Origin: Squalus acanthias
Taxonomy: Eukaryota
Direction: 5' to 3'
NCBI GenBank assembly: GCA_030390025.1
Contig: CM059432.1
Coordinates: forward strand, 96,908,001-96,972,000
Length of the DNA: 64,000 bases
A program made the translations under genes and the position numbers. Below, in pieces: positions 3,897 to 49,275 of this stretch (its first letter is position 1; the number at the start of each line of letters is the position of its first letter). The notes beneath the pieces were generated by a model. It was not told the DNA's origin. It was given only the letters and a program-made list of their open reading frames with translations, and ran no database searches.

Positions 3897-3983
3897 TTTT
3901 AAATAAATCTGTTGGACTATAACCTGGTGTTGTGCGACTTCTCATTTTTGTCCACCCCAGTCCAACGCCGGCATCTCCGCATC

Positions 3984-21539: not shown

Positions 21540-23013
21540 GGAAGCTCAGGGTCCCCCTTACGGACTGAACGGAGATGTTCCGCAAAGCGGTCACCCAATC
21601 TGCGTTTGGTCTTCTCAATGTAGAGGAGACCACATCGTGAGCAGCAAATACAGTATACTAGATTGCAAGAAGTACAAGTAAATTGCTGTTTCACCTGGAA
21701 GGGGTGTTTGGGGCCCTGGACAGTGGGAAGGGGGGAGGTATAACGGCATATGTTGCATTTCCTGCGCGGAAATGGCGGTGGATGATCCGTTGAATGTGAA
21801 GGCTGGTGGAGTGAAAGGTGAGGACAAGGGGAACCCTATCATGGTTCCGGGATGGAGGGGCAGGGGTGAGGGCAGAAGTGCGGGAGATGGAACGGACACG
21901 GTCAAGGGCCCTGTCAACCACAGTAGAGGGGAATCCTCGGTTGAGGAAAAAGGAAGACATGTCGAAGCTCTGGTATGTAAGGTGGCATCGTCAGAGCAGA
22001 TGCGGCGGAGACGGAGAAACTGGGAGAATGGAATAGAGTCCTTACAGGAAGCGGGATGGGAGGAAGTGTAGTCCAGGTAGCTGTGGGAGTCAGTGGGCTT
22101 GTAGTGAATGTTTGTCAATAACCTATCCCCAGAGATAGAGACGGAGAAGTCGAGGAAGGGAAGGGAAGAGTCGGAGATGGACCATGTGAAGGTGTGGAAA
22201 GGGTGGAAATTGGAAGCAAAGTGAATGAAATTTTCTAGTTCAGGGCGAGAGCAGGAAATGGCACCGATACAGTCATCAATGTACCAGAAAAAGAGGTGAG
22301 GGAGGGGACCTGAGTAGGACTGGAACAAAGAGTGTTCCACATATCCCACGAAAAGGCAGGCATAGCTAGGACCCATGCGGGTTCCCATAACAACACCTTT
22401 GATCTGGAGGAAGTGAGTGGAGTCAAAGGAGAAGTTCTTCAATGTGAGAACAAGTTCAGCCAGGCGGAGGAGGGTGGTGGTGGATGGGGACTGGTCGGGC
22501 CGCTGTTCAAGGAAGAAGCGGAGCGCCCTCAGGCCATCCTGGTGGGGGATGGAGGTGTAGAGGGATTTTACGTCCATAGTGAAAAGGAGGCGGTTGGGGC
22601 CAGGAAACTGGAAACTGTTAAAGTGGCGGAGGGCGTCGGAAGAGTCGCGGATGTAGGTGGGAAGAGACTGACAAGGGGAGAAAAAATAGAGTAGAGATAG
22701 GAAGAGATAAGTTCTGTGGGGCAAGAACAGACTGAAACGATGGGTCTACCAGGGCAGTCCTGTTTGTGGATCTTGGGAAGGATGTAGAAGCGGGCTGTGC
22801 GGGGTTGGGGAACTATGAAGTTGGCGGCCGTGGGGGGAAAGATCTCCAGAGGAGATGAGGTCAGTGGCAGTCTTGGAAACAGTAGCTTGATGTTCGGTAG
22901 TGGGTCATGGTCCAGGCAGAGGTAGGAGGAGTTGTTGGTGAGTTGGCGTTCAGCTTCCGCTAGGTAGAGGTCGGTTCGCCAAACAACAACAGCACCACCC
23001 TTGTCAGCAGGTT
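21540..23013 (-). mobile_element. Second Penelope family: RT and partial GIY-YIG, degraded
   Basis: MDVKSLYT, MGTRMGPSYA, WYIDD, FLD, HYKPTD (21615..22724); LVYCICC..LYIEKTKRRL..RFAEH (21263..21694). Confidence 0.9.
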
Positions 23014-24297
23014 AACTGAAACGTTAACTCTGTTTCTCTCTTCACAGATGCTGCCTGACCTGCTGAGTATCTCCAGCATTTTCTGTTTTTATTTCAGATT
23101 TCCAGCATCTGCAGTATTTTCTTTTTGTATTAGTGTTTAATTCACTGCCACTTCTCTTCCAGGAATGCCCACATTAAAGAAGTTCTGCTCTTCTCTCCGA
23201 CAGGATTTCCATTTGTCTCTTTTACCTTGTTCATCTTCATTGCTTTCTGTCTCCCTTCTCGTGATTGATCAGGTATCTACCAAAACTCGCTTTTACAGCC
23301 ACATATCTTTCCTCAGCAACTGTCTCCGGCTCCGACTTACTCCACGTGGATTCCAACTGAAATTCCACCCTTCGTGTTTTGGATCCACCCAGGACTACAG
23401 ATATCTCCAAGATATTCATCGTTCCTCGAACCACTGCTCTCGCCGTATCCTGGCATCCACGCTGAATGCCATGCGACGCCACATGAACACTCTCGACCTC
23501 TCCTCAGCAGCACCGACTCACTCTATCTCAAAGCTGTCCTGGTCCGCAGTTCCATTTCATCCTTCGCCTCATCCGGCGCTTCAACAAAAAACTTTTTTTC
23601 TTCCTTTCAGGTGTCAAGGATCGCAAGCTTCAACAACTCTTGACACCAACACCCCTCCGGAACCTTCTTCCCCTTCACTTTCCTCTGACCCCATCCCTTC
23701 TCCCAATCTCACCCCCTGCTGCATTTTCACTGTCCCCTCTGACCTTCCCCTCTCTGACCCCGAACGATCAGTCCTTAGCAAAGGCCTGAGCTTTATCCCC
23801 TTACACCCCCACCTCAATGAATTTCGGGCTCGGCACGATGCTGAGCTCTTTTTCCGCCGCCTTTGTCTCCATGCCCACTTCTTTGGCCAGGAGTCTTCCC
23901 CCCGCACGGCTGATCCTTTCTCCCACGTTCAGAATTGTCGTTCTACTGGACACCTCCCTCTGGCCTCTGAACCTCTCTAGATCTTTTCATTGCAAACTGC
24001 CGGCGTGACATCGGCTGTCTCAATTTCTCTGCTCCCCTCACTCCAACCTACCTCCCTCTGAACTTGCAGCACTCCATTCTCTCAGATCCAATCCCAACAT
24101 TGTCATTAAACCTGCTGACAAGGGTGGCGCTGTTGTTATTTGGCGAACTGACCTCTACCTAGCGGAAGCTGAACGCCAACTCTCCGACACCTCCTTCTAC
24201 CTCTGCCTGGACCATGACCCCGCTACCGAACATCAAGCCACCGTTTCCAAGACTGTCACTGACCTCATCTCCTCTGGAGATCGTCCCCCCACGGCTG
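23014..24297 (+). mobile_element. Inverted 5' part of the same Penelope family (pLTR remnant, N-terminal ORF)
   Basis: GAAACGTTAACTCTG..GATGCTGCCTGACCTGCTGAG 5' region; HISFLSNCLRLRLTPRGFQL, VLSKGLSF, FFRRL, IKPADKGG; 24108-24297 is an inverted duplicate of 22824-23013. Confidence 0.85.
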
Positions 24298-28925: not shown

Positions 28926-31576
28926 TTAGACTGTGACCCCTGGTTCTGACTCCCCCACCATCGGGAACATCCTTCCTGCATCTAGTCTGTCTAGTCCTGT
29001 TAGAATTTTATAAGTTTCAATGAGATCCCCTCTCATTCTTCTAAACTCTAGCGGATACAAGCCCAATCGACCCAATCTCTCTTCATACGTCATTCCTGCC
29101 ATCCCAGGTATCAGTCTGGTGAATCTTCGCTGCACTCCCTCCATGGCAAGAACATCCTTCCTCAGATAAGGCGACCAAAACTGCACACAATACTCAAGGT
29201 GTGGTCTCACCAAGGCCCTGTACAACTGCAGCAAGACATCCTTGCTCCTGTACTCGAATCCTCTCGCTATGAAGGCCAACATACCATTTGCCTTCTTAAC
29301 CACCTGCTGCACCTGCATGCTTACCTTCAGCGACTGGTGCACAAGGACACCCAGGTCTCGTTGCACTTCCCCTTTTCCCAATCTATTGCCATTCAGATAA
29401 TAATCTGCCTTCCTGTTTTTGCCACCAAAGTGGGTAACCTCGCATTTATCCACATTATACTGCATCTGCCATGCATCTGCCCAATCACCCAACCTGTCCA
29501 AATCATACTGGAGTTTCTCGGCATCCTCCTTACAGCACACACACCCACCCAGCTTTGTGTCGTCTGCAAACTTGGAGATATTACATCTAGTTCCCTCATC
29601 TAGATCATTAATATATATTGTGAATAACTGGGGTCCCAGCACGGATCCCTGCGGTACCCCACTAGTCACTGCCTGCCACTCAGAAAAAGATCCGTTTATT
29701 CCAACTCTTTGCTTCCTGTCTGCCAACCAGTTTTCTATCCAAGTCAGTACCTTACCCCATTCCCATGTGCTTTAATTTTGCACGCTAATCTCTTATGCGG
29801 GACATTATCGAAAGCCTTCTGAAAGTCCAAATACACCACATCCACTGGTTCTCCCTTATCTATTCTACCAGTTACATCCTCAAAAATTCCAGTAGATCAG
29901 TCAAGCATGATTTATCTTTTGTAAATCCATGTTGACTTTGTTCGATCCTGTCACTGTTTTCCAAGTGCTCTGCTATTACATCTTTTATAATGGACTCTAG
30001 CATTTTCCCCACTACCGATGTCAGGCTTACCGGTCTATAATTCCCCGCTTTCTCTCTACCACCTTTTTTAAATAGTGGGGTTACATTAGATACCCTCCAA
30101 TCCATGAGAACTGTTCCAGATTCTATAGAGTTTTGGAAGATGACCAGCAATGCATCTGCTATTTTTAGGGCCACTTCCTTAAGTACCCTAGGATGTAGAT
30201 TATCAGGCCCTGGGGATTTATCGGCCTTCAATCCTGTCAATTTCCCGAACACCATTTCCCTACAAATACTGATTTCATTCAGTTCCTCCCTCTCATTAGA
30301 CCCTATGTTCCCCAACATCTCTGGGAGGTTATTTGTGTCCTGCTTTGTGAAGACAGAACCAAAGTATGTATTTAATTGAACTGCCATTTGTTTGTTCCCC
30401 ATTATAAATTCCCCTGATTCTGACTGCAAGGGACCTACGCTTGACTTCACCAATTTTTTTCTCTTCACATATCTATAGAAGCTTTTACAGTCACTTTTTA
30501 TGTTCCCTGGAAGCTTACTCTCATACTCTATTTTCCCCCTCTTAATTAATCCCTTTGTCCTCCTTTGCTGAATCCTAAACTGCTCCCAATCCTCAGGTTT
30601 GCTGCTTTTTCTGGCCAATTTATATGCCCTCTCCTTGGATCTTATGCTATCCCTAATTTCCCTTGTTAGCCATGGTTGAGTCACCTTTTTTGTTTTATTT
30701 TTATGCCAAACATGGATGAACAAATTCTGTAGTTCATCCATGCGATCTTTAAATGTTTGCCATTGCCTATCCACCGTCAACCCTTTAAGCAACATTCTCC
30801 AATCCATCCTAGCCAACTCGCGCCTCATACCATTGTAGTTTCCTTAATTTAAATTCAGGACCCTAGTCTCTGAGTCAACTACTTCACTCTCCATTTTAAT
30901 GAAGAATTCTATCATATTATGATCGCTCCTCCCCAAGGGGCCTCGCACAACAAGATTGCTAATTAATCCTTTCTCATCACATAATACCCAGTCGAGTATG
31001 GCCTGGTCTCTAGTTTGGTCCAGGAAACCATCCCGTATACACTCTAGGAATTCCTCCTCCACAGTATTGTTACTAATTTGGTTAGCCCAATCTATATGTA
31101 GATTAAAGTCACCCATGATAACTGCTGTGCCCTTATTGCACACATCTCTAATTTCCCATTTAATGCCATCCCCAACCTCTGCATTACTGTTTGGGGGTCT
31201 GTATACAACTCCCACTAACATTTTTTGCCCCTTGGTATTTCTCAGCTCTACCCATACCGATTCCACATCATCAGAGCTAATATCCTTCCTTACTATTGTG
31301 TTAATCTCCTCTTTAACCAGCAATGCTACCCCACCTCCTTTTCTTTTTTGCCTGCCCTTCCAAAATATTGAATACCCCTGGATGTTGAATTCCCAGCCTT
31401 GGTCACCCTGCAGCCATTTCTCCGTCATCCCAATTATATCATATCCATTTACATCTATTTGCGCAGCTAATTCATCCACCTTATTACGAATGCTCCTCGC
31501 ATTAAGACACAGAGCCTTTAGGCTTGTTTTTTTTAACACTCCCAGACAATTTAGAATTATTGTTTACTGTGGCCAT
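28926..31576 (-). pseudogene. CR1 ORF2 (APE endonuclease + RT), frameshifted
   Basis: LNARS, MGDFN, LDWV, SDH, KSPGPD, NYRPVSLTS, QHGF, GVPQGSVLGP, FADD. Confidence 0.93.
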
Positions 31577-32202
31577 GTTTGATTTACACCCTTGATTTCT
31601 CTGCCTTCCACTTTTGCTTTTCTCCTTCCTGTCTTTTGTTTCTATCCTCGCTTCCCTTTCCTCTGTCTCCCTGCACAGGTTCCCAACCCCCTGCCATTTT
31701 AGTTTAAACCCTCCCCAACAGCACTAGCAAACACTCCCCCTAGGACATCGGTCCCGGTCCTGCCCAGGTGCAAACCGTCCAGTTTGTACTGGTCCCACCT
31801 CCCCCAGAACCGGTTCCAATGTCCCAGGAATTTGAATCCCTGCCCCTTGCACCATTCCTCTAGCCACGTAGTCATCTGAAATATCCTTCTATTTCTACTC
31901 TGACTAGTACGTGGCACTGGTAGCAATCCTGAGATTACTACCTTTGAGGTCCTATTTTTTAATTTACCTCCTAACTCCCTATATTCTGCTTTTAGGACCT
32001 CATCCCATTTTTTACCTATATCGTTAGTACCTATATGCACCATGACAACTGGCAGTTCACCCTCCCTCTCCAGAATGCCCTGCAGCCGCTCCGAGACATC
32101 CTTGACCCTTGCACCAGGGAGGCAACATACCATCTCGTTTGCGGCCACAGAAATGCCTATCTATTCCCCTTACAATAGAGTCCCCTATCACTATAGCTCT
32201 CC

Positions 32203-32312
32203 TTTTCCTCTGATCTGCCGCAGCCTGTTGCTGCACTGACCCCTTCCTCTGATCTGCCGCAGCCTGTTGCTGCACTGACCCCTTCCTCTGATCTGCCGCA
32301 GCCTGTTGCTGC
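32203..32312. repeat. 39-bp tandem repeat x about 3 in the pol tail
   Basis: CTTCCTCTGATCTGCCGCAGCCTGTTGCTGCACTGACCC; encodes AATGCGRSEEGVS. Confidence 0.9.
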
Positions 32313-35300
32313 TGCGATGGGGCCGGGCTGTATCTGGGCTGCCTTAACCTTGAGTCTACGCCTTGGGACAGTCTGGGGCCATACCCACATCTTCCTGGGC
32401 TGGGGTTCTCTACTTGACCTACGGGGAGTTGTCAGGGGCAGGGATCCCATGACCGACGGACCGGGTTCCGAGACTTCCATCGGGACGACCTGTGGTTCCA
32501 CCACAGTCGCTGGCTCCGCCTCCGCTGACTCCGCCTCCCTAACCTCGGGGCTTGCAGTTTGTGGCTCCGCCCTGCTCGGCCCAGCAGGCGACCCTTCACT
32601 CACGATCTCTGCCTCCCCCGAGGGCGGGACGTTCAAAGCGGGCGGCTCGGGCTCGGAGGTTCTCACCGTCACTCCCTGTGTTCTCACAGCGGCTGGCTCC
32701 GCCTCCCCTAGCTCCTCCCTCCTGTGTTCGGGACCTGCAGCTTGTGTGTCCACCCTGTGTGGATCTCCATCTGCAGTCCGTGTCCTCCCTATACCTAAAA
32801 TGGGAACGCTCCTTACGTTCCCCAAAACCCACTCGCCTTCATCACCATCCTCATCTGACTCCCATCCCCACAAAAATGCTTCATGATCTTCCAGGATGTC
32901 TCCTCCCCTGATGCAAGCTGCTTTGCCTGCCTGTGTGCCTTGTGGTCCTACCTGGGGCTGCGCTTCCCCACTCGCGGGGTTTACCCCTGTGGTTTTCCCT
33001 TGCGCACCTGGCTTGTACAGTTTGCACTGGTTTACGTGGAACCACTTAGTGCGCCGAGGTACCTTTACGGCGTATACCATGGGACTCGCCTTGTCTACAA
33101 TATTGTAGGGTCCCATATACAGTGGTTCCAGACTCCCTACTCTGGCGTAGTTTCTGACCATGACCTGGTCTCCTACTTCCCACTCCCGCGTTTTGCGGGG
33201 TTCCAGCAACAGGCGATTGCCCTGATGCTGTCTTCCCATGTTCCCAGCCGCCTGCTCATAAACCTGCTTCAGGCGCTCCAAGAGGGTCTGGGCGAACTTG
33301 TCCCTGCTTATCTCTTGGAGCTGACCCTCAGTGAGCACCGGCGCTAGCACATGGGTGGGGGTTCGCATGAGCCTCCCAGTCATCACCTCATGCGGGGAGT
33401 ACCCCGTACTTTTTGACTGACTGGCCCGGACCCCCATGAGGACTAAAGGCAGAACTTCCGCCCATTTTTGGGGCGAGTTCCTAGTCTCTTTCCTCAATTT
33501 CTCCTTCAGGGTCCGGTTCATACGTTCAACAATCCCGGATGACTGGGGATTGTGTGCTACGTGCCACTTCCCTTCAATGCCCAAAAGCATGAGGGTGTTC
33601 TGCATCACCTGGCCGGTGAAATGACTCCCTTGGTCTGACTCCACAAAACGGGGGAGTCCCCACCGCGAGAACACTTCCCGGACCAAGATTTTTGCAGTAC
33701 CCAGTGCCGTAGCTGTTCGACAGGGGAAGGCTTCCACCCATTTGGAAAACACATCCACCAAGACGAGGCAGTATTTATAGCCTCCCTGGGTGGTGGGCAG
33801 GGGTCCTAAATAGTCGATCTGTATCGACTGCCATGGTCCCTCTACCCTTCTTACGTGTCCCATGGGCACTTTCCTTTTCTGGGGGTCTGGGTTGTTTGCA
33901 GCGCACACAAGACAGTTTGCATAGAACTCGCGGACTTGTTCCCTGAGCCCTGGCCACCATCCCGCTTGCTCTACCCGTTGCCAGGTAACCTCGGGCCCGG
34001 GGTGCCCTGCCCCTGGTCCCTCGTGAGCCAACTGGAGGAATTCCCTCCTGTGCTGCTGCGGCACAACCCACTGCTCCTCGCGGAACAGCATGCCTTCCTT
34101 AACTGAGAGGGTTGCCGTACTGTACGGACCCTCTACCTGCTTCCCCTCAGCAATGGTTTTTAGGACTGCTTTTAGGGCGGGATCCTGGGTTTGGACAGTC
34201 TTAAGGTCTAGGGGCAATGCTACCCTGGTGTTCCCGGGATTCCCGTCCCTGCCTTGGATCGCTGCCATGGGTCTGGTCCCATAGGGGTCCCAGAAAATGC
34301 CGTTGCGGGCACCTTCCCTGGCTAGCGCATCCGCCTGCTGGTATGCCCTCCCCACGGGGCTCTGTGGAGGAGTGAGCCTTCACCTTATGGATGAAAATCT
34401 CCCCTTCCTCCCCTACTGCTGCTAGGATCTTTTCCAGCAAGGGCTTCACCGTTAAAGGTCGCCCGTCCGCGGAGGTGTATCCACGGCGGGACCAAATGGC
34501 CAGGTATTCCGTACACGAATTGCAGGTGAACATACTGTCCGAGCAAATCGTGTATGGGGTTGGGAAAATGTCCGGGTGGGTAACAACGTACACCACGGCA
34601 GACAGCTCAGCCTGCTGCGCGCTCATGGTGCTAGGGAGCTTGATCGCCAGGGCAAGGTTTGCCGCAGGGTCATAAACTCCACACCCTGTGAGTCGTTCGC
34701 CAGCCGATACTGTGCTAGACCCATCAACATAAATCTCGCGCCCAGTGGGATGTATCCCGGCCCGCAAACCTATGTTGACGTCCCACACCCCTTCCACCGA
34801 ACATCGGTGGGCTGTACCGGGGTATACCAAATTGGCCGCAAGCCTGGGCTCGCAAAGACCTTTAACTCTAAGATCCATCTGGGAAAGAAGAAGGGTCCAG
34901 CGCGCAATACGCACGCTGCTTACGGTCCCATCTTTAATCCTCCCATCTAGAAGCATCTTAGTTGGTGTGTGATGTGTGAGGAGAGTGATGGGAGAGAGCC
35001 CTGTGAAGATCGCTGATCTTTTCACAGCCCAATGCGTGGCTAAAAGGTGCCTTTCGCAATTGGAGAAACTTCTCTCCACATCCGTTAACACCCTGGATGA
35101 ATAGACAACCGGCCTCAGCTTGCCGTGACGCTCTTGGAGCAGCACAGCGCTCAAGCTGTCTCCGCTGGCAGCTACCTCCAGGAAAAACTCCTTCCCCCCA
35201 TCTATGGCCCCTAAGGCTGGCGCGGTCTGCAGATCCCTTTTTAACTTCTCGAAGGCTGCTTGGCAGCCCTCGTCCCAAGACCACTCCACTCCCTTATGGA

Positions 35301-36684
35301 GGAGTCGGAGGAGCGGCGCCGCTGTGGCCGCATAGTCTTCGATAAAATCCCTGCAGTAACCGGTCAGTCCCAAGAAGGACCTCACACCCCTTATGTTGTT
35401 GGGAATCGGTAACTCTTGCACCGACTCCCTCCTAGCTTTGTCTATGGCTCTTTCCCCAGCGCAAATGGTCAGTCCCAGGAATTTTACTTCCTGCTGACCG
35501 ATACGTGCTTTCTTAGGATTTATTTTAAAACCCTTTCTCGCTAGCAGCTCCAATAACTCGTCCAGCAGTGGTCCATGCTCCTCCCTTGAATCCGTAAATA
35601 GGAGCAAATCATCCACGTACTGCACTATCTGATTGGGCTGACTAAACTCCTTTAAACTTCCTGCCATACACTGATGGAAAATACTGGGGCTATTGTGGAA
35701 ACCCTGTGGCAGACAGTTCCATGTGTACTGTTGTCCTTTGAAAGTAAAGGCAAACTTGTACTGGTCCTCTCGCCTCAGCGGGATGGACCAAAAACCGTTC
35801 GAGATATCCAACACCGTGAACGTGGTCGCGGACGCTGGGATACTCCCTATTAGGTCAGCAACTGCTGCTACCGTGGGCGCGCAGGCGGGAATGTTACTGT
35901 TAAGGACTCTGTAGTCCACCGTGGCTCTCCACGAATTATCCGGCTTCCTAACCGGCCATAATGGGGAGTTCACGTGTGTGGCTATCGGCCTCAACACGCC
36001 CTGCTGCACCAAGGAGGACATTGCTGTCTCCATATCGGGTTCTGCTTCTTTGGGGAAGTTATACTGTTTTTGGGGCCGGGTCATGGGGTCCCCATCTACG
36101 CTGACCTCAAACCCGGCAACCCTCCCACAATCGTGCTTGTGGGTTGCAAACGCGTGCATATTATCTGACACGTACGTTTGCATGTCCGTTGGGACATCTG
36201 CGACCATAAGCCCGAGGTCGTAGCCTCCGGATGGCTGCACGGTACACAGGACCCCTGTTTCCTCCTCCCCCGGAATCACTACTACCTCGCCTTTTTCACT
36301 CTTAGCCCCCCAAAGACAGTGATTTCTGAGGTCCACGAGGATCCCGTGTCCTGATAGAAGATCGGACCCGAGGATACCTCTTCCACCCCCCTCCTGCCAT
36401 TCCATCAGTATGCACTTCCACTTGAGGTGAAGTGCTCCCAAACGAATGGATAGCGGAAGGGAGAACGCGCCAGCCTGTTCTTTTCCCGTGAACCCCGCTA
36501 ATGTGAATGGGACCTTGGTAGATAGCGGCGAGTCAAAAGGGCTATCTGTATGGATTATGGTGCAAGAAGCTCCCGTGTCCAACAAATAACTACCCTTCTG
36601 TTTCTCTACCTCCATCTCCACCAAAGGTCGCTTCCACGCATCATAGCTGAGCGGACACAGGTAGACGGGCTGCGCGGGCTCTAG
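32203..36684 (-). pseudogene. pol: Pol (protease, RT, tether, RNase H, integrase, long acidic/Pro-rich tail); single 1-nt frameshift at about 34343
   Basis: LLDTGA; NSPLWPVRKPD..WRATVDYR; LDISNGF; LPQGFHNSP; YVDD; RNase H YVDGS/AQQAEL/SDS/HKVKAH; IN H..GH..C..C, QIDY, SDQG, GIVERMN, GPY; removing base 34343 restores GEGNQQAD. Confidence 0.92.
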
Positions 36685-38493
36685 TCATGGGGTACGATTA
36701 GACGGTCCTGCGGCACCTATGGGGCCGGTAGCAACCGCCACCTTTCCATGTGCACTCAATAAACTGCGCATGGCTCCCAACACTACTTCGAGGTCGTCGG
36801 GAGGGGTGGGTGCACTAGCTTCCCTTGCAGGGACAGGCGTCTGGGCTCGGGCTGCGGGAATTTTATCCCTGGAATCCTTCCAAGGGTTCCTGCAATTCTT
36901 GCGCCAGTGCCCTGTCTTCCCACACCCGTAACAAGCATTACTTGCCTGCGGGGCGCGATTCCCCTCCTGATGCCACTCCCTTTGATACGGGGCTGCGGGT
37001 CGTACCTCATGTACTTTTCCCTTAAGGGGACGTGTTCCCATACCCCTTATATTGCGATATCCTAACGTGAGTCGATTCAAGACCGACTCTTCCGTAATGT
37101 TGGGGTCATTGGGATCAAACCATGCTTTTGCCTGCTCTCTGACGGCTGGTAAACTGTTGGCTACTATGCACCTAAGCCAATGATTTAAACCGGCGCCGTC
37201 CATATCGTCGCGCTCTAGCGCACCTAGACAGCTGCGCTGATATACTGGCCACAGCCTGTCGGCAAAAACCTTCGGGGGTTCTCCCTCCATCTGCACTGTC
37301 TGTCCCACTCTAGCGAACGGACCTTCATCGTCCGCCCCCAACACTTCCAGGACCTCATTCTTTAATGCCTCATAAGTCTTGGTTCCCCTCTTGCTCTCTC
37401 CCGAGAGACACTGAAGGATTGAACTGCCTAACGAAAACAACAGCATTTTTGCTGTTTCCCCATCATCGCAGCCGTTAATGGCTGCGGTTTGCTCAACTTC
37501 TCTGAAATGTACGGAAGGGTCGTCTAACTCGGTCAGCTTCCGTACATGACTTATCATAACTCTCAGCTGGTGTGAGCTGTGAGGCAACACAAGCTGGCCG
37601 AGGAGATCCCCTGGTTCCCCCCCACCGTTTCTGTTTGGGCCCCTTTTTATACCCGTTACTGGATACAACGGTCCCTTTTCCACTTCTTTCTCAATGGGCT
37701 CTTTCGTTTCTTCCACTACTTCCTCCCTTACCCAGGTTTCCGAATAGCTGGGTGGCGCGGAGGGCGCAGTGGCTAATACTTCCTCTGCTTTACTTGGTGG
37801 GGACTTCTGAAACTCCTCTTTTACTAGCGGCTGGTGTGCTGACGGACTGATAAGGCACACCATGCCATGCGCTTTGTTTACGGCCCTTTTGAGGTGCTCT
37901 ATCTCTTTTTGGCAGGCGCTATGATCGGCTCCCTGAAACTTATCCTCAAGGGCCAACTTATATGCCGCCCTAACCCCCGTTAAGCTCTCTTCCTGAGTTC
38001 TTATCTGGGCAGCTTGGCGGGCACATCGTTCCTTTAATCTGCCCTCATTTAACTTTGCCTCAGTGACCTGGCACTCGAGGTATTCTATCCTTGTTTTATG
38101 GTGACTGGAGATTTCCTGGCGTTCTTGGTGCAGCGCACTTAAATTCCTAATGAGCAACTCCCCTCCAGAGACCTTCTCATCCATTTCTCCCTCTAAATGA
38201 CTGATTCGAGCTGTTAGCGCTGTAATGACCTGGTTTGAAATCTGGACCTGCCTTTTGTAACACATTAGCCAGACTGCTTTCTCGAGTGTCTTTTTATGTT
38301 CTTTACTATCTGTCCACCTTTCGGCTGCCTCTAGTGGACTTTTATCCGCTAACAATTCACTTATCCATTTCTTAGTTAGATTAACCTTTCCGAACACATA
38401 ATCTGCTATCTTTTCCTGCATAACATTTCGTACAGTCATACCAAAGTCTAACACACTACCCTCTCGCTGCCAGTGTCCTGCCGCGGTCGCCAT
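36685..38493 (-). CDS. gag: Gag-like protein (602 aa) with coiled-coil-like region and one CCHC zinc knuckle
   Basis: Uninterrupted ORF from ATG 38493; CYGCGKTGHWRKNC; PSAPPSY (PSAP plus PPxY late-domain-like). Confidence 0.88.
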   Translation of the reverse strand: MATAAGHWQREGSVLDFGMTVRNVMQEKIADYVFGKVNLTKKWISELLADKSPLEAAERWTDSKEHKKTLEKAVWLMCYKRQVQISNQVITALTARISHLEGEMDEKVSGGELLIRNLSALHQERQEISSHHKTRIEYLECQVTEAKLNEGRLKERCARQAAQIRTQEESLTGVRAAYKLALEDKFQGADHSACQKEIEHLKRAVNKAHGMVCLISPSAHQPLVKEEFQKSPPSKAEEVLATAPSAPPSYSETWVREEVVEETKEPIEKEVEKGPLYPVTGIKRGPNRNGGGEPGDLLGQLVLPHSSHQLRVMISHVRKLTELDDPSVHFREVEQTAAINGCDDGETAKMLLFSLGSSILQCLSGESKRGTKTYEALKNEVLEVLGADDEGPFARVGQTVQMEGEPPKVFADRLWPVYQRSCLGALERDDMDGAGLNHWLRCIVANSLPAVREQAKAWFDPNDPNITEESVLNRLTLGYRNIRGMGTRPLKGKVHEVRPAAPYQREWHQEGNRAPQASNACYGCGKTGHWRKNCRNPWKDSRDKIPAARAQTPVPAREASAPTPPDDLEVVLGAMRSLLSAHGKVAVATGPIGAAGPSNRTP

Positions 38494-38707
38494 TTTCTGT
38501 AAGGGTTTGCGTGCGTGTCTCTCAGCCTGTGAGATTCGCGCGGCTCTGTGCAGCCTGTATGTCAGTGCGGGTTTCGGCCTTGTTGCCTGTTCTGGTCTCC
38601 AGCCAGTCTGGGAGCACTAGACACACCTGTGAGTGGTTCGAATCACTCGCCCTTACGGTTCTAGACACTGGACTTAGATGCGAGAGCAGTAATGGAGATG
38701 AAACTCA

Positions 38708-40172
38708 TGTAGACTCGGTTGAATGGTACGAAATGGAAAATCTTTATTGCATAATATTCAAGATTACGAAATACATGTCATAAGCACAGATTAATGACAG
38801 TACAATCTTACACGCAGTTATGTAGCTAATTCTAGGGAAACGAGGAACGAACGACACACCGTAAATGGGGGCACACATTACAAGTATCCTTAATACTTAA
38901 GCCCTCCCCTATCAATATCTGTCCTAGCTAGATTCGTAGGATTCGAGACTCATGCTCACCACTCGTGATAACTCGGAGAAATTCCGAGTAGCTGATCGGA
39001 TGTTTTCACCGCAGCACCCACGTGTCGATCAGGGGGTCTCCTGGCCCCACTTGTTTACTTGCTTCTGCTCCGGCTAGCAGGCTGGAACGTCTGTTGTTAC
39101 GAAGATCTCTGTTGGTTGGTTTCACGTACCAGTCAACACTTAAGAGAATAATCTCTCGGTGTCCGTCATGAGGATCTGCCCTGATGGGTTTCACAGATCA
39201 GTCAATATCTCAAAGGAGAATCTTTCGGGGTCCGTTCTTTAAAGTTCAAAGAAGTCTTCCTGGCAAGGAGAAATGTCTATTCGACCTACAGGCGCGGTCG
39301 GGGCTTACTGACCGTGGCGATAAGTATGATCTTCGTCTCTTCTCATCTCATCTCATCTCTTCTCGGGCCTTTGGTTCCGATGCCGGTTACCAACACAGAT
39401 CTTCGTGACACAACACGAGGTAGATCCGAACAGATCACAAAGTTCAACAGTCTTTTAAAAGAGACACCAGGCAAACAGGAACAAGTCGGCGAGTCAAGAA
39501 CACAGGAGCAGCCACGAGGATGAACACCAGCAAGATAAGAGAAAGATGGATGGTTGGAGCTTGTAATTATAGTACAAAATCTTCCGTTTCCCGCCCAACC
39601 TTAATGCCTTTTCTTTTGTTTGGGTTTGGCGCTCAAATGTCTTGTATAGGTGATCTCCGTTTTTAATGGGTTTCGGGGCTACTCGTAAATGTCTGAGTAC
39701 CTGTTAATATTTCTCCCATTGTTAAATCGGTCGGTGTTCTCCCTGGAGGGGTTTTGGGGCTTCCAAGTGTCTTGTGTAACTACCCGCTAACGGCTCTCTC
39801 ATCGTAGAGTCGTTGGGATTTTACATATTAATGTCTTTGGATGGGCCCTTGATTACTTGGTACAATAGCCTTTATTCGTACCCGGGAGACCGATTTCAGT
39901 ATCTATGTGTATACTGCAAACCCATGATGTCTTGTGTATTATCTTCAATGTGCTGAATCTTAATCGATCTTGCACAAATGTTTATTGGAACGCCATCTTG
40001 TCTGTCTGTCGAAAAGTCTAGAATGTTCCGCCACGAGGTGCGGCGGCCATTTTACAGGCTGCTTGTGTCCACTTTGAAAACCTGACAGCATTCTGCTGAA
40101 ATAAAGCTGTTTGAACGAAACTATGTGTTTTTCTCCTTATTTATAAAATCGCGATATATTGCGAATTCTACA
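38708..40172 (-). repeat. 5' LTR, about 1465 bp
   Basis: Starts TGTAGA at 40172 exactly where CR1 homology stops; ends TCTACA at 38708; AATAAA at 38748-38743; inner end inferred because there is no second LTR. Confidence 0.72.
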
Positions 40173-40739
40173 GTGACCAATTCATTAAACGTGATATCCA
40201 TCATGTCCTCAGCATCGCGAATGCTCCAGTATGCATCCATTTGCAGCTCCAGCGCCGCAAAGCGGTCTGCAATAGCTGCAGCTGGATACACTTCCTGCAC
40301 ACATGGTCGTCAGGGACACAGGAAGTGTCCCTGATTTCCCACATCGCGCAGGAGGAGCATACCACAGGGCCAAGCTGTGCTGCCATGACTTACCCTTTAA
40401 TTATTTTAATTTAAATTAAATCAAATCAATACCAGCAATTACACTTCAATTAAATGTTATACTCAAGGGCCCTTGTTTACTAGCACTCTCCGCTACACAA
40501 CAGAGACCTTAGAAACGAAAACCACAAAATTAAGACCTTCTAAACTTGATAAATTATTAACCTTAACTGTCAAACTATAGAGTAGTATAAATACTCACCT
40601 GGCCATACTCACCCAATCAGCTGCTTCCTCTTGCCTGCGTCACTTTTTGAATCATGACGTGGCTCTGAAATGCTGCCGCCGATCTGTGAGATTGGTAAGT
40701 CTTTGAAAAAAAGCCCGTGAAAGTGAGTTTAAACACTCA

Positions 40740-43700
40740 GGGGGAGAAATTCAGTATCGCCCCATTTGGGGTGCAATTATCGGCCGGGCGCAAAGATTAG
40801 CGCCTGGCGCTAATTATCGCCACCGACTGCAAACTTGACTTTTATCGCCCCTGGAGGTGATTGCAGCGCTATATCAGGCGCTTCACACCTGTCTTAAGGC
40901 GCAAAGGCCGAGAAGCGAGGCGTTACCTCAGAGCGCTGGCGAAGCTCATGTAATGTCAGTCAGCAATGGAACACACACACAATGGCACGGGCCAGTTCTT
41001 AAAGGGGATGGTTAATCTTGCTTTCCATCCACATCCTGCTCATTGCAGCCTTGAATCTCGGCCTGGAGAGACTTGCACATCAAATGTGCTGGAAAGAACA
41101 ATGGAGAGTACCAGGCAAAGAGCTCAGAGTGCAGCCCCCACAGTCTCTGCTAAATCGATACAAGGAATGGCAAATCAAAATGAACCTGCAAAGTGCTGCT
41201 CAGTACCCAAAACTCCTTCACACAACGTTGAATCTCTCCAGAAGTCTCTCCCTCTCTCTCTCAGAATGCGTAGTTCAAAAATGGCACCAACAATAAAAGG
41301 CAGGAAGCGGTCACCTTTAAATAGCGCTCCCCCTTTCCCTTCATGACTGCAGAACGCTCCCCTCAACCTGTCGTTGCTAGCATCAGGCGGTAAGGCAGGG
41401 GGTGCCACTCAATATCCGCTCCGGGGCGATACCGGGGCGTTGCGCACTCGAGTGACGTCACGATCTGCCGGCGCAGGAGATCGTGGCGGTAGTGTTTAGC
41501 GCCGCCGCAAAATGTCTAGTTAATTTCGCGAGCGGCGCAAACTTCGCCGCGCCTGGGCGCTAGATGCTTTGCGCCCCATTAGCGCCCTCTTAAGGTGCTA
41601 ACGGGAGGCGCAACCAACTGAATTTTTTCCCCTCACGGTCCTCTCCTGTTGCTCCCGATACCGGACTTTGAAAAAAAGCCCGCAAAAGTGAGTTTAAATA
41701 CAGTCACCTCAGCTGGTAGCATTACAGAATTATGGGGGAGAAATTCAGTATCGCCCCATTTGGGGCGCAATTATCGGCCGGGCGCAAAGATTAGCGCCTG
41801 GCGCTAATTATCGCCACCGACTGCAAACTTGCGTTTATCGCCCCTGGAGGTGATTGGAGTGCTAAATCAGGCACTTCACACCTGTCTTAAGGCGCAAAGG
41901 CCGAGGAGCGAGGTGCTACCTCAGAGCGCTGGTGAAGCTCATGTAATGTCAGTCAGCAATGGAACATACACACAATGGCACGGGCCAGTTCTTAAAGGGG
42001 ATGGTTAATCTTGCTTTCCATCCACATCCTGCTCATTGCAGCCTTGAATCTCGGCCTGGAGAGACTTGCACATCAAATGTGCTGGAAAGAACAATGGAGA
42101 GTACCAGGCAAAGAGCTCAGAGTGCAGCCCCCACAGTCTCTGCTAAATCGATACAAGGAATGGCAAATCAAAATGAACCTGCAAAGTGCTGCTCAGTACC
42201 CAAAACTCCTTCACACAACGTTGAATCTCTCCAGAAGTCTCTCCCTCTCTCTCTCAGAATGCGTAGTTCAAAAATGGCACCAACAATAAAAGGCAGGAAG
42301 CGGTCACCTTTAAATAGCGCTCCCCCTTTCCCTTCATGACTGCAGAACGCTCCCCTCAACCTGTCGTTGCTAGCGTCAGGCGGTAAGGCAGGGGGTGCCA
42401 CTCAATATCCGCTCCGGGGCGATACCGGGGCGTTGCGCACTCGAGTGACGTCACGATCTGCTGGCGCAGGAGATCGTGGCGGTAGTGTTTAGCGCCGCCG
42501 CAAAATGTCTAGTTAATTTCGCGAGCGGCGCAAACTTCGCCGCGCCTGGGCGCTAGATGCTTTGCGCCCCATTAGCGCCCTCTTAAGGTGCTAACGGGAG
42601 GCGCAACCAACTGAATTTTTTCCCCTCACGGTCCTCTCCTGTTGCTCCCGATACCGGACTTTGAAAAAAAGCCCGCAAAAGTGAGTTTAAATACAGTCAC
42701 CTCAGCTGGTAGCATTACAGAATTATGGGGGAGAAATTCAGTATCGCCCCATTTGGGGCGCAATTATCGGCCGGGCGCAAAGATTAGCGCCTGGCGCTAA
42801 TTATCGCCACCGACTGCAAACTTGCGTTTATCGCCCCTGGAGGTGATTGGAGTGCTAAATCAGGCACTTCACACCTGTCTTAAGGCGCAAAGGCCGAGGA
42901 GCGAGGTGCTACCTCAGAGCGCTGGTGAAGCTCATTTAATGTCAGTCAGCAATGGAACATACACACAATGGCACGGGCCAGTTCTTAAAGGGGATGGTTA
43001 ATCTTGCTTTCCATCCACATCCTGCTCATTGCAGCCTTGAATCTCGGCCTGGAGAGACTTGCACATCAAATGTGCTGGAAAGAACAATGGAGAGTACCAG
43101 GCAAAGAGCTCAGAGTGCAGCCCCCACAGTCTCTGCTAAATCGATACAAGGAATGGCAAATCAAAATGAACCTGCAAAGTGCTGCTCAGTACCCAAAACT
43201 CCTTCACACAACGTTGAATCTCTCCAGAAGTCTCTCCCTCTCTCTCTCAGAATGCGTAGTTCAAAAATGGCACCAACAATAAAAGGCAGGAAGCGGTCAC
43301 CTTTAAATAGCGCTCCCCCTTCCCCTTCATGACTGCAGAACGCTCCCCTCAACCTGTCGTTGCTAGCGTCAGGCGGTAAGGCAGGGGGTGCCACTCAATA
43401 TCCGCTCCGGGGCGATACCGGGGCGTTGCGCACTCGAGTGACGTCACGATCTGCCGGCGCAGGAGATCGTGGCGGTAGTGTTTAGCGCCGCCGCAAAATG
43501 TCTAGTTAATTTCGCGAGCGGCGCAAACTTCGCCGCGCCTGGGCGCTAGATGCTTTGCGCCCCATTAGCGCCCTCTTAAGGTGCTAACGGGAGGCGCAAC
43601 CAACTGAATTTTTTCCCCTCACGGTCCTCTCCTGTTGCTCCCGATACCGGACTTTGAAAAAAAGCCCGCAAAAGTGAGTTTAAATACAGTCACCTCAGCT

Positions 43701-46596
43701 GGTAGCATTACAGAATTATGGGGGAGAAATTCAGTATCGCCCCATTTGGGGCGCAATTATCGGCCGGGCGCAAAGATTAGCGCCTGGCGCTAATTATCGC
43801 CACCGACTGCAAACTTGCGTTTATCGCCCCTGGAGGTGATTGGAGTGCTAAATCAGGCACTTCACACCTGTCTTAAGGCGCAAAGGCCGAGGAGCGAGGT
43901 GCTACCTCAGAGCGCTGGTGAAGCTCATGTAATGTCAGTCAGCAATGGAACATACACACAATGGCACGGGCCAGTTCTTAAAGGGGATGGTTAATCTTGC
44001 TTTCCATCCACATCCTGCTCATTGCAGCCTTGAATCTCGGCCTGGAGAGACTTGCACATCAAATGTGCTGGAAAGAACAATGGAGAGTACCAGGCAAAGA
44101 GCTCAGAGTGCAGCCCCCACAGTCTCTGCTAAATCGATACAAGGAATGGCAAATCAAAATGAACCTGCAAAGTGCTGCTCAGTACCCAAAACTCCTTCAC
44201 ACAACGTTGAATCTCTCCAGAAGTCTCTCCCTCTCTCTCTCAGAATGCGTAGTTCAAAAATGGCACCAACAATAAAAGGCAGGAAGCGGTCACCTTTAAA
44301 TAGCGCTCCCCCTTTCCCTTCATGACTGCAGAACGCTCCCCTCAACCTGTCGTTGCTAGCGTCAGGCGGTAAGGCAGGGGGTGCCACTCAATATCCGCTC
44401 CGGGGCGATACCGGGGCGTTGCGCACTCGAGTGACGTCAAGATCTGCTGGCGCAGGAGATCGTGGCGGTAGTGTTTAGCGCCGCCGCAAAATGTCTAGTT
44501 AATTTCGCGAGCGGCGCAAACTTCGCCGCGCCTGGGCGCTAGATGCTTTGCGCCCCATTAGCGCCCTCTTAAGGTGCTAACGGGAGGCGCAACCAACTGA
44601 ATTTTTTCCCCTCACGGTCCTCTCCTGTTGCTCCCGATACCGGACTTTGAAAAAAAGCCCGCAAAAGTGAGTTTAAATACAGTCACCTCAGCTGGTAGCA
44701 TTACAGAATTATGGGGGAGAAATTCAGTATCGCCCCATTTGGGGCGCAATTATCGGCCGGGCGCAAAGATTAGCGCCTGGCGCTAATTATCGCCACCGAC
44801 TGCAAACTTGCGTTTATCGCCCCTGGAGGTGATTGGAGTGCTAAATCAGGCACTTCACACCTGTCTTAAGGCGCAAAGGCCGAGGAGCGAGGTGCTACCT
44901 CAGAGCGCTGGTGAAGCTCATTTAATGTCAGTCAGCAATGGAACATACACACAATGGCACGGGCCAGTTCTTAAAGGGGATGGTTAATCTTGCTTTCCAT
45001 CCACATCCTGCTCATTGCAGCCTTGAATCTCGGCCTGGAGAGACTTGCACATCAAATGTGCTGGAAAGAACAATGGAGAGTACCAGGCAAAGAGCTCAGA
45101 GTGCAGCCCCCACAGTCTCTGCTAAATCGATACAAGGAATGGCAAATCAAAATGAACCTGCAAAGTGCTGCTCAGTACCCAAAACTCCTTCACACAACGT
45201 TGAATCTCTCCAGAAGTCTCTCCCTCTCTCTCTCAGAATGCGTAGTTCAAAAATGGCACCAACAATAAAAGGCAGGAAGCGGTCACCTTTAAATAGCGCT
45301 CCCCCTTTCCCTTCATGACTGCAGAACGCTCCCCTCAACCTGTCGTTGCTAGCGTCAGGCGGTAAGGCAGGGGGTGCCACTCAATATCCGCTCCGGGGCG
45401 ATACCGGGGCGTTGCGCACTCGAGTGACGTCACGATCTGCCGGCGCAGGAGATCGTGGCGGTAGTGTTTAGCGCCGCCGCAAAATGTCTAGTTAATTTCG
45501 CGAGCGGCGCAAACTTCGCCGCGCCTGGGCGCTAGATGCTTTGCGCCCCATTAGCGCCCTCTTAAGGTGCTAACGGGAGGCGCAACCAACTGAATTTTTT
45601 CCCCTCACGGTCCTCTCCTGTTGCTCCCGATACCGGACTTTGAAAAAAAGCCCGCAAAAGTGAGTTTAAATACAGTCACCTCAGCTGGTAGCATTACAGA
45701 ATTATGGGCGAGAAATTCAGTATCGCCCCATTTGGGGCGCAATTATCGGCCGGGCGCAAAGATTAGCGCCTGGCGCTAATTATCGCCACCGACTGCAAAC
45801 TTGCGTTTATCGCCCCTGGAGGTGATTGGAGTGCTAAATCAGGCACTTCACACCTGTCTTAAGGCGCAAAGGCCGAGGAGCGAGGTGCTACCTCAGAGCG
45901 CTGGTGAAGCTCATGTAATGTCAGTCAGCAATGGAACATACACACAATGGCACGGGCCAGTTCTTAAAGGGGATGGTTAATCTTGTTCTCCATCCACATC
46001 CTGCTCATTGCATCCTTGAATCTCTGCCTGGAGTGACCTGCACATCAAATCTGCTGGAAAGAACAATGGAGAGTACCAGGCAAAGAGCTCAGAGTGCAGG
46101 ACCAAAGTCTCTTCTAAATCAATACAAGGAATGGCAAATCAAAATGAACCTGCAAAGTGCTGCTCAGTACCCAAAACTCCTTCACACAGCGTTGAATCTC
46201 TCCAGAAGTCTCTCCCTCTCTCTCTCAGAATGCGTAGTTCAAAAATGGCACCAACAATAAGAGGCAGGAAGCGGTCACCTTTAAATAGCACTCCCCCTTT
46301 CCCTTCATGACTGCAGAACGCTCCCCTCAACCTGTCGTTGCTTGCGTCAGGCGGTTAGGCAGGGGGCGCCACTCAATATCCGCTCCGGGGCGATACCGGG
46401 GCGTTGCGCACTCGAGTGACGTCACGATCTGCCGGCGCAGGAGATTGTGGCGGTAGTGTTTAGCGCCGCCGCAAAATGTCTAGTTAATTTCGTGAGCGGC
46501 GCAAACATGTCCGCGCCTGGGCGCTAGATGATTTGCGCCCCATTAGTGCCCTCTTAAGGCGCTAACGGGAGGCGCAACCAACTAAATTTTTCCCCC
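40740..46596 (+). repeat. Tandem array of six Harbinger MITEs, 993-bp period (about 893-bp MITE + about 100-bp spacer)
   Basis: MITE starts at 40740, 41734, 42727, 43720, 44713, 45706; ORF track repeats every 993 bp; TIR GGGGGAGAAATTCAGT. Confidence 0.97.
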
Positions 46597-48047
46597 TATG
46601 TCTCTTCTCTAGGTGTTCTAAGTTTACCATAAAAAACGGTGTAATGGCAGGTGCGTTTTACTTGATGTCATTTTTACGAAGGCAGATGTTTGTGCTTTTT
46701 TACGAAGTGTAAATTAGAACCCCTTAACCAGGGTGAACCATTGTCTTGTTCCAAAAGATTCAGACTAACGGAGCCTTTAACCTTCTGTTTCAATAAGGTT
46801 ATTGATTCAGTGTCAACAACTATCTTATCTCTAAAGCCAGAATGCTATCACAGCTTTTTCATAGTTAGGTTTCTAGATTTCCAGACCCGGTTTGTCATGT
46901 TTTAATAAGGCCAGAATTCTTTCATGGAATGGTGTATTTTTCTGAAGAGGTTATATGGCTTATTCCTTCACAGCAGGAGAGCTTGGGGGAGCAGGGGGAA
47001 GCAATCCTGCACCTCCTGGGGTGGAAGTAGTGCTGTAAGGGCAGTTACCTTTTCCCTGAAACTGTCCTCACCTCCCTTGAGTTGCTGGGTTTCCCAAGAC
47101 CTGGGAATCCCGGCTGGCCAGGGTTAAATCTGTAAGGGAAGTTAAATGTCAGGCTCCCAGCCTTATTATAATATTTAAATGTCAATCCACCTCCTGGGAG
47201 CCGGTTCGCTGCCCTCCCCCTGTTCTGCCTCCGTTAAACCCTGAAGTGGGTGGGTTGAAGGCGGGTTGAGGTCGGGTTTGAAATTTTAAAATTTTTTACA
47301 TCTCACGTGACCCCAACCCACCTGTTTTGGGTGGTTAAAATTCACCCCATTGAGTCTATAGCACAGAAACAGGCCATTCGTGCCCAACTGGTCAATGCCA
47401 GCGTTTATGTTCCACAGGAGATCCTTCCCACCCCTCTTCATCTGAACCCTGTTTAACTAAGTTACAGTCTGACACTATGTCACACATACAATAACCAAGG
47501 CGGGAATTTTCTGGCTGCCATGTGTGCCGGATTGGAGGCAGGTCGGGAATGAAAGTTGAAATAAATTGGAGCGGATCGGGAACTCGCTGTCATCCCACCT
47601 CCTCGCGCCTTTTACTTGGGCGCGTTTGCCTGCGCAGCCTCGACCTGAACGGCAAAGGCGGCCGACCTAATTTTGATAATTATTAGGTTGTTGTCAGACT
47701 GTTAAGCGTCCTTTTAACCCTACCTTTGGAATTTCACTGCATGACCACGGGAATCAAGCAGCTTGGGAACCACGACTATGAATCTGAGGCGGAAGTTCAG
47801 TCGCCATTGATGGAACTCATTACTGCACAGCATGGAAAGCACAATAAATAATCCCACCTGATACCTGGTTACTTTCCCAAGGCAGATGCTTTTGCTGAGT
47901 GCATTGTGAGCACAGATTTAGGTTTCTAGAGGTTGCAAGTGTTTTCAGCAAATTCGGGAACCACTGTCACCTCATTGTTACAACCTTTCACACCATTGAC
48001 AGATTGCTTCTTTCATCTCTACTTGACCTGCCATCTATTACATCAGC

Positions 48048-49275
48048 ATGGGTGCCGTTTATACTGTCTCACCTTGGTCCTCAGAATCGGACCACGATGA
48101 GCCCCAACACCAGCAACACCAGGCACACCAGCAGCAGTAACAACAACACCACCAACCTTCTCCTCAATGACCTGATGCTCCACAGGGCAGAGGACATCAG
48201 CACAGGGCTGCACCGAGCCAGAGGCAATACCCCCAACACAGGGTATGCAGGCAGAGATGAGCTTCCTCAACATGACTGAGCAGCAGTGCCAAAGGAGGCT
48301 CCGGCTATCGCACCAGGTCATCACAGGCATTTGTAGCTTGCTGGAGCAAGACCTGCAGCCCAGAGGACCTGGTGGACATGCCTTACCAGTGGCTGTCAAA
48401 GTCACCAGCACCCTCAACTTCTTTGCTTCAGGCTCCTTCCAGGGATCTGCAGCAGACATTTGCGGCATCTCACAGTCGGCCACCCACAGATGCATTACAT
48501 AGGTCACCGATGCCCTGTTTGATAAGTCAGCCAATTATATCAACTTTGCCACTGATGAAGCCAGTGTTACTCAGTGGGCACTCGCCTTTTCCGCTCTGGC
48601 TGGCTCCCCACGGGTGCAGGGCATCATTGACTGCACACATGTGGCCATCAGGGCACCACATCATCACCCTTTGTCAGCTGCAAGGGCTTCCACTCCCTCA
48701 ATGTGCAACTCATCTGCAAGCATAGGAAAATCATCATGCATGTGTGCTTTCCTGGCAGCTGTCATGACTCTTTCGTCCTGCGCCAGTCCACCCTCCCTCA
48801 GCTCTTCGCACCTCCAAACAGACTTTCCGGTTGGCTGCTTGGACACAAGGGCTATCTAATGAAGACGTGGCTCATGACACCCTTGAGGAGACCAAGTCCT
48901 GAGGTCGAGGAGAGTTATAATGGAAGCCACATGTGGACCAGATGTGTCATGGAGCAGACAATAGGCATGCTGAAAATGCACTTCAGATGCATTGACAGAT
49001 CTGGAGGAGCCCTTCAGTACACACCAGCCAGGGTCTCCAGAATCATCGTGGTCTGCTGCACCCTGCACAACATAGTGCAGCAGCGAGGATTAACGCTGCA
49101 TGAGGAGCAAGGCTCTGAGCAAACAGCCTCTTCAGAGAAAGAGGAGGAGGAAAAGCATCAGCTGGAAGACGAGGAGGAGGAGCAGGAGGAACCTGAGGTC
49201 CAGATCCCACCAGCACCCGAGCACATTGCTGCCCGGGAGACCAGAGATGGTCTCATCATGGCCAGATTTTCTTAA
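48048..49275 (+). pseudogene. Harbinger transposase pseudogene
   Basis: [52 protein letters not shown]; stops and frameshifts. Confidence 0.9.

Follow-up and report, generated by a model that had tools for sequence, protein, structure and literature searches.

An endogenous retrovirus family of Squalus acanthias with two RNase H domains and a predicted immunoglobulin-like, F-type envelope protein

The subject of this report is an element in a 64,000-nucleotide stretch of Squalus acanthias DNA (the window). Positions 32203 to 40172 hold, on the reverse strand, the 5' two-thirds of an endogenous retrovirus (ERV), and sister copies elsewhere in the genome preserve the remainder. We are confident that the family is an ERV on the canonical-retrovirus side, with a dead RNase H fold (the tether) followed by an intact second RNase H; that it is likely snakehead retrovirus (SnRV)-like and likely spread by reinfection; and that its envelope protein (Env) is predicted to join an immunoglobulin (Ig)-like domain to a body of the paramyxovirus fusion-protein (F) type. 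A preliminary description of the same DNA had proposed a lokiretrovirus- or Odin-like lineage, a label contradicted by the reverse transcriptase (RT) motifs, trees and topology tests given below.

Pol carries a degenerate and a complete RNase H

The pol region of the window copy comprises the following features.

36352..36636, (-) strand: aspartic protease (LLDTGA), Pfam RVP E 3e-4
35275..36012, (-) strand: reverse transcriptase (LPQGFHNSP, YVDD), Pfam RVT_1 E 2e-36 and trees
34879..35196, (-) strand: tether, a degenerate RNase H fold, pol residues 497-602, Pfam RT_RNaseH E 5e-18 and fold search of a model
34310..34737, (-) strand: second, catalytic-type RNase H, from pol residue 650, Pfam RNase_H E 3e-15
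33015..34064, (-) strand: integrase (H2C2, DDE core rve, GPY/SH3-like C-terminus), Pfam and tree
32203..33014, (-) strand: acidic Pro/Glu-rich pol tail, apparently unconstrained, ending at the deletion junction

The preliminary description had read a degenerate RNase H, VAAS at its catalytic site, ahead of a second full RNase H, and both domains were recovered. In an AlphaFold model covering the two (mean predicted local distance difference test score, pLDDT, 85.7), residues 32-151, which correspond to the tether, match the RTs of cauliflower mosaic virus (Z 15.4, root-mean-square deviation, rmsd, 1.8 over 117 residues) and Ty3 (Z 12.7, rmsd <2), confirming an RNase H fold in this segment; residues 187-321, the second RNase H, match human RNase H1 (Z 14.6-14.8). 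At the position of the first catalytic Asp the tether has Ala in all 32 copies covering it, and the D/E/D/D residues of the second domain are retained in 31-32 of 32. The window copy itself is broken by a single-base frameshift near 34343, within the second RNase H, seen as an indel relative to a natural sister copy. A tether plus a second RNase H is common to all retroviruses, and the use that the preliminary description had made of the pair, as a pointer to lokiretroviruses or Odin, does not hold.

The element falls among canonical retroviruses

The window RT has the motifs LDISNGFWSI, LPQGFH-SP-IFHQ, QYVDD and KINPKK in common with SnRV, which at 46% shows the highest RT identity among the named viruses tested (loki-type 35-39%, foamy 32-39%). 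The top homologs of the RT-RNase H (RH) region are frog and coelacanth ERV proteins (40-45%), and the top matches are named NYNRIN-like; we take NYNRIN to be CGIN1. When the motifs were compared with a published RT alignment (PMC9040795, supplementary file 2), the loki and Odin rows were found to carry PFGY-NSP and RWPM/GWPV, as against LPQGFHNSP and QYVDD in the window.

Trees of RT, RT+tether, RT+tether+RH and integrase were built with 47-59 rows taken from 167 RT matches and from viral loci. The comparison set comprised SnRV (locus L035, matched to its published row), 16 foamy-type genomes, 11 betaretrovirus-type loci, class I, Gypsy and loki-type eel proteins. P0110 was dropped as a long branch from the RT+tether+RH and RT+tether trees, the integrase tree (quick method) omitted seven candidates without enough integrase, and a 95-row RT tree was read from the quick method. 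In the careful 53-row RT tree the element lies inside the canonical retroviruses (support 100/98) with loki outside, and it stays inside them (99/98) when betaretroviruses are added. In the RT tree it sits closest to ERVs of frogs and coelacanth (86/88, or 93/92 once betaretroviruses are included). The quick integrase tree gives a loki clade at 99 and puts the element in the other clade at 97. Loki fell outside the clade holding the element in all four trees rooted on Gypsy, and the approximately unbiased (AU) test rejects a clade of element and loki (p 0.027 for RT, 0.0002 for RT+tether). The element is thus on the canonical-retrovirus side with loki outside, as the preliminary description had it in so far as it spoke for a retrovirus and against Ty3/Gypsy. 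Its suggestion of a lineage near the retrovirus root survives as to the deep-branching position and fails as to the loki/Odin label.

The lokiretrovirus or Odin-like reading, under which the element would be the first of its kind in cartilaginous fish, does account for several observations. These are the dual RNase H; an F-like Env, as described for lokiretroviruses (PMC7947760); an integrase that scores higher by BLAST to loki-type proteins (36%, 229-246 bits) than to SnRV (31%, 135 bits); and the NYNRIN-like top matches, the loki integrase being placed near CGIN1 in the same paper. Sampling has also been thin, with 0 of 3 Chondrichthyes genomes positive in the text of that survey. Set against these are the RT motifs, the four rooted trees with both AU tests, and, for Odin, the presence of env in this family, since Odin lacks one. 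We consider this reading extremely improbable, and the assignment was rejected on the RT motifs (compared by eye in the case of Odin) and, with eel proteins standing for loki, on the RT, RT+tether and integrase trees and the AU tests.

A conventional Ty3/Gypsy element, or a class I (gamma/epsilon) or foamy ERV, is hardly more credible. The 4-bp target-site duplication (TSD), CCHC knuckle, GPY motif and in-frame gag-pol arrangement fit the ERV1 profile in Table 1 of PMC4299795, and the best PDB sequence matches are murine leukaemia virus and foamy RT. In the careful RT tree, however, the Gypsy (100/100), class I (100/99) and foamy (100/100) branches each exclude the element; once betaretroviruses are added, class I support falls to 62/99 but the element remains with the frog and coelacanth ERVs at the support given above.

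Within the canonical retroviruses, we assign the family likely membership of the SnRV-like grade, named clade Huo by Xu et al. 2018 (PMC6001957); its RT is related to that of SnRV and lies outside the class I, class II and foamy clades. The root of this part of the tree allows a different arrangement, in which the element and ERVs of frogs, coelacanth, turtles and ratites form a lineage that splits off before foamy viruses, SnRV and class I, so that "SnRV-like" would merely denote a basal grade. Two quick trees do unite the latter three groups to the exclusion of the element, namely those of RT+tether (SH-like approximate likelihood-ratio test, SH-aLRT, 98) and integrase (91). The careful RT trees, on the other hand, leave a polytomy, and in the RT+tether+RH tree the element joins SnRV and class I with support 92, foamy apart; the foamy branch is very long, and both trees in favour are quick ones. 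We regard this arrangement as possible though doubtful. It overlaps with our preferred explanation, from which only the root differs.

SnRV-like ERVs have already been published from elephant shark (CmiERV lineage I, PMC4422223; also PMC4977317). No related locus was found when viral contigs were searched with the RT. An atlas search returned one chordate cluster at 0.84, which we treat as a lead only. The loki-type Pol proteins P0091, P0093, P0096 and P0098 come from the eel Synaphobranchus kaupii, a species not found in the supplement text of the loki survey.

Sister copies encode an Env with a predicted F-type fold

The preliminary description had supposed that env was lost with the 3' end and that a fusion-protein env might lie between integrase and the 3' long terminal repeat (LTR) of complete copies. 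Both suppositions proved sound. Counted against a sister copy, the window provirus lacks 4857 nt including env and the 3' LTR, and sister copies encode Env in a frame that follows pol and precedes the 3' LTR. Counted from its Met this frame is 783 aa long; it is open at 22 of 42 loci, and the other 20 lack the full frame, two of these being cut by the stretch end. By eye, Env consists of a signal peptide, an Ig-like stretch, an RQRR site, a hydrophobic peptide, long helices, a Cys-rich region and a transmembrane segment (TM). No open reading frame (ORF) of at least 200 aa was seen between env and the 3' LTR.

HMMER retrieved 50 relatives, and proteins homologous to Env occur in sharks, rays and frogs. 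A profile built from the 50 relatives can be aligned to SnRV Env across 275 columns (E 4e-9, probability 96%), and its top PDB match is foamy Env (E 0.0024). The Env model matches paramyxo- and pneumovirus F throughout, with Foldseek E 6.5e-11 to F of human parainfluenza virus 3, Z 11.1 (rmsd 18.8 over 377 residues) to F of Newcastle disease virus, and Z 8.5 to foamy Env. It also matches the predicted Envs of walleye epidermal hyperplasia virus (E 4e-11) and walleye dermal sarcoma virus (E 3e-8). Residues 32-173 match Ig V-type domains. A profile of the Ig-like domain detected it neither in SnRV Env (E 0.19, inside the range of 20 shuffles) nor in the five distant Env homologs tested, one of which has a weak V-set match of its own. 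Pfam detected no fusion-protein family in 16 of 17 Env homologs, the remaining one giving Baculo_F at E 0.0011. Taken together, the model and profile comparisons lead us to describe Env, a homolog of the SnRV protein, as a predicted Ig-like domain followed by a predicted paramyxo/pneumovirus-F fold.

A core common to F and foamy Env has been described (PMC11468914, PMC12583693, PMC13524379), gamma-type Env is known to bear binding domains of the IgV-like kind (bioRxiv 2024.03.17.585361), and epsilon Env has been described as neither gamma- nor beta-type (bioRxiv 2021.11.23.469661). Among open-access texts, we found no report of an F-type Env for SnRV-like or epsilon retroviruses, nor of this shark family. 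Since foamy Env, models of epsilonretrovirus Env and, by homology, SnRV Env are of the F type as well, such an Env occurs across loki, foamy, SnRV-like and epsilon viruses and is no marker of loki. Env fragments of the family also appear fused to host gene models (P0065, P0066 and P0214: Niban 1-like and ZFP2-like in a sawshark, and an F-box protein), through either an annotation artefact or exonisation.

env is under purifying selection as strong as that on RT

Ratios of non-synonymous to synonymous change (omega) were obtained from up to 45 copies, with variants common to at least two copies separated from singletons. The env shared variants comprise 124 synonymous and 28 non-synonymous changes (omega 0.09, p 7e-41). 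Shared-variant omega is 0.12 for the Ig-like part of env, 0.10 for RT, 0.13 for the tether, 0.12 for the second RNase H, 0.11 for integrase and 0.30 for gag; the acidic pol tail, at 1.08, serves as an internal control. Singleton omega is 0.39-0.82 overall and 0.49 for env. We conclude that gag, pol and env are under purifying selection, and that selection on env is as strong as on RT. Because env was kept functional during the expansion, reinfection via particles is the likely route by which the family multiplied in the shark germ line.

Intracellular retrotransposition, with env as a passenger, could alternatively have been the main route. Mobilisation in trans does occur, as the abundance of a pol-substituted subfamily indicates (7 of 42 loci; at least 40 matches to its insert), and nearly half of the loci lack the full env frame. 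The omega of env shared variants argues the other way, and even the env singletons stay below 1. We judge this route unlikely to have predominated, and favour reinfection.

The family is young and includes pol-substituted genomes

Sister copies are 97-99% identical, with 4-bp TSDs and a tRNA-Arg primer; they show both LTRs, the primer-binding site, a polypurine tract, the TSD, and env in its place downstream of pol. Probing with the LTR, env or pol yielded at least 40 matches at 97-100% in each case, 40 being the number of candidates scored; for the LTR these were 40 out of 6123 candidates, itself included. Target duplications of 4 bp flank all 12 insertions with both flanks, and eight fetched LTR matches are solo LTRs. 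All three frames are open in at least one fetched two-LTR copy. A 95%-identical fragment has been annotated in a shark, which, with the Env homologs of sharks and rays, fits the shark host that the preliminary description had thought probable. No env splice joint was seen in contigs of four runs from three organisms, which covered all 30 bins of a copy, mostly at 90-99% identity; such contigs cannot show transcription.

In three true two-LTR copies, the 5' and 3' LTRs differ at 2, 10 and 2 of 1684 positions, which, together with the open gag and the lone indel in pol, agrees with the earlier picture of a young copy with gag intact and one pol frameshift. These differences would correspond to roughly 0.3-1.3 My at a mammalian rate, or to tenfold greater ages at the rate that Han 2015 (PMC4422223) assumed for sharks. 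L003/L004 (G000:C19) and L007 (G000:C3729), whose two LTRs have identical flanks, were left out of the dating; they are local tandem or assembly duplicates.

Among 42 loci, pol is present in 31, a substitution replaces protease-RT-RH-integrase in 7, and 4 have other deletions. In the pol-substituted subfamily about 245 nt stand in place of these domains, encode a coiled coil and link the gag stop to the pol tail without a change of frame; the insert has at least 40 near-identical copies (40 out of 1286 candidates were scored). Such genomes would depend on pol-bearing copies acting as helpers in trans. One example is L001:5897-6142 (G000:C13), and others are in L002, L003, L010, L038, L045, L046 and L058. 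By eye, the substituted coiled coil resembles that of Gag; no source of the insert was found.

The window copy is a truncated insertion in a LINE

The remaining parts of the window provirus and its host element are as follows.

38498..40172, (-) strand: 5' LTR, 1675 nt, TGTAG...CTTACA; termini and 4-bp TSDs seen in sister copies
38475..38492, (-) strand: primer-binding site, 18 nt, complement of the tRNA-Arg(TCG) 3' end
36685..38493, (-) strand: gag, open, 602 aa, with a coiled-coil-like N-terminal half (by eye)
37744..37764, (-) strand: overlapping PSAP/PPSY late-domain-like motif in Gag, seen in the sequence, its function putative
36892..36933, (-) strand: single CCHC knuckle in Gag, Pfam zf-CCHC E 0.0035, under the curated cut-off
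36681..36687, (-) strand: gag TGA stop followed by CTAG and pol in frame, a likely readthrough junction
40173..40700, (-) strand: 5' part of ORF1 of the host long interspersed nuclear element (LINE), 84-87% to LINE copies at 20858-21346 and 14383-14684
29872..32202, (-) strand: rest of the host LINE, beyond the provirus 3' junction

The primer-binding site starts five bases past the LTR and overlaps the first in-frame gag ATG. The tRNA-Arg(TCG) 3' pattern has 422 exact genomic matches (control 0), and ARAGORN names tRNA-Arg(tcg) at both loci checked. Large tandem arrays with units of about 1623 nt at G000:C26:38.99-42.2 Mb contain genes for this tRNA.

The coiled-coil-like stretch, single CCHC and PSAP/PPSY motifs that the preliminary description had listed are all present in the 602-aa Gag. 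Of the 12 copies in which the stretch was found, all have PSAP and 11 have PPSY. Gag matches SnRV Gag weakly in its coiled-coil and CCHC parts (pairwise E 5e-05). The TGA-CTAG context is identical in all eight copies that hold gag, and UGA-CUAG is a leaky stop context.

The provirus was inserted inside ORF1 of the LINE, which we take to be CR1-type, and both flanks match the LINE found elsewhere in the window. Its 3' end is missing from about 32203, where about 225 nt of the LINE are also gone. Provirus and LINE have a short purine-rich stretch in common at the junction, which makes a single post-integration deletion likely. The window copy is dead and truncated, an ordinary insertion holding the 5' two-thirds of the ERV.

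Other elements in the window

At positions 40721-46605, a unit of 993 nt is repeated six times in tandem (identity 94-100%), and further copies of it are dispersed at 9483-10402 and 63582-64000. A nuclease-like frame with a partner ORF occurs at 16855-19524 and 48631-49275, presumably of Harbinger/PIF type. RT frames at 2778-6395 and 21615-23980, one open for 699 aa, resemble Penelope-like elements.

Proposed life cycle and weight of the evidence

In the life cycle that we propose, the LTR would drive genomic RNA, and Gag-Pol would arise by readthrough of UGA-CUAG. Gag would bud in the manner of the endosomal sorting complex required for transport (ESCRT) through PSAP/PPSY. Env would be cleaved at RQRR by furin and fuse membranes as F does, the Ig-like domain being its likely attachment head. 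The DNA would be made by RT together with the second RNase H and inserted by integrase. Pol-substituted genomes would be mobilised in trans by pol-bearing copies. After its integration into the LINE, the window copy likely lost about 4.9 kb by deletion across the purine-rich stretch.

Several observations weigh against the SnRV-like, F-type reading. In no tree is the element the supported sister of SnRV, and an AU test of that grouping gives p 0.19, not rejected; in these trees the SnRV-like sequences are arranged as a grade instead of a clade, and the Huo label comes from similarity and position. Loki stands in the trees as 2-4 eel sequences (P0098 and P0091 among them) labelled by motif match to published rows, no Odin or CmiERV sequence was included, and the integrase BLAST scores lean towards loki. 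The Env model is modest (pLDDT 61.6, predicted template modelling score, pTM, 0.41), Pfam finds no fusion-protein family (no PF00523) in the family Env, and the Ig-like call is based on Pfam E 0.015 and Z ~6. Each copy was picked for its high match to a single env, LTR or pol, a choice biased towards young and intact proviruses.

A bolder scenario, which we put forward tentatively and think unlikely as a whole, takes the family as the earliest-branching canonical grade, below foamy viruses, with the ancestral Env kept. The ancestor of loki, foamy, SnRV-like and epsilon viruses would then have had an F-type fusogen, gamma and beta Envs would be later replacements, Odin would have lost its Env, and the family would have been infectious recently, with an Ig head and helper-dependent genomes.

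Comparison with known systems

Among the named viruses tested SnRV is the closest by RT identity, and it shares the RT motifs given above. It resembles the family in having an in-frame gag stop ahead of pol (TAG in SnRV, TGA in the family), a Gag with a coiled coil and one CCHC, and a homologous Env body. It differs in its longer Env (1123 aa, compared with 783 aa) and in a 205-aa ORF after env, where the family shows none of at least 200 aa; the family in turn has a 1.7-kb LTR and a long acidic pol tail.

Lokiretroviruses have gag-pol-env and tether plus RH in common with the family, and by description their Env has a signal peptide, RXXR, fusion peptide, coiled coil, TM and F-like fold (PMC7947760); the family's RT lies outside the loki clade and has different motifs, and no separate smc ORF was seen. 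Odin shares the dual RNase H, yet it lacks env and is known from sea anemones (PMC9040795), and its RT motifs differ by eye. Foamy viruses resemble the family in the dual RNase H and in the F core of Env, which is of fusion subclass Ib (Fernandez et al. 2024, PMC11468914). The family departs from them in an RT outside the foamy clade, a Gag with CCHC, a pol that continues in frame after the gag stop where foamy pol has its own initiation, and an Ig-like N-terminal domain in Env in place of the inserted foamy receptor-binding domain. XtERV-S is likewise neither class I nor II, with an in-frame TGA at the gag-pol junction and a tether, but has a 5-bp TSD and a class I Env (PMC8278194), as opposed to the 4-bp TSD and F-type Env here. 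ERV4, also outside classes I and II, has a 5-bp TSD and no CCHC or GPY/F (PMC4299795), both CCHC and GPY being present in the family, which by these traits fits neither ERV4 nor ERV3.

The window copy is ordinary and SnRV-like ERVs of cartilaginous fish are already on record; the interest of the family lies in its Env. Independent acquisition of an F-like Env by lokiretroviruses is one of the scenarios listed for retrovirus origin (PMC7947760). A canonical, non-foamy retrovirus whose F-type Env is under strong purifying selection, is homologous to that of SnRV and matches the foamy and epsilon Env models favours this type as the ancestral one, and it may have been ancestral in retroviruses. 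F-like Env and dual RNase H no longer serve as loki markers. With its many open env frames, this young and abundant family offers a direct way to test how a fish-retrovirus F-type Env is built and which receptor it uses.

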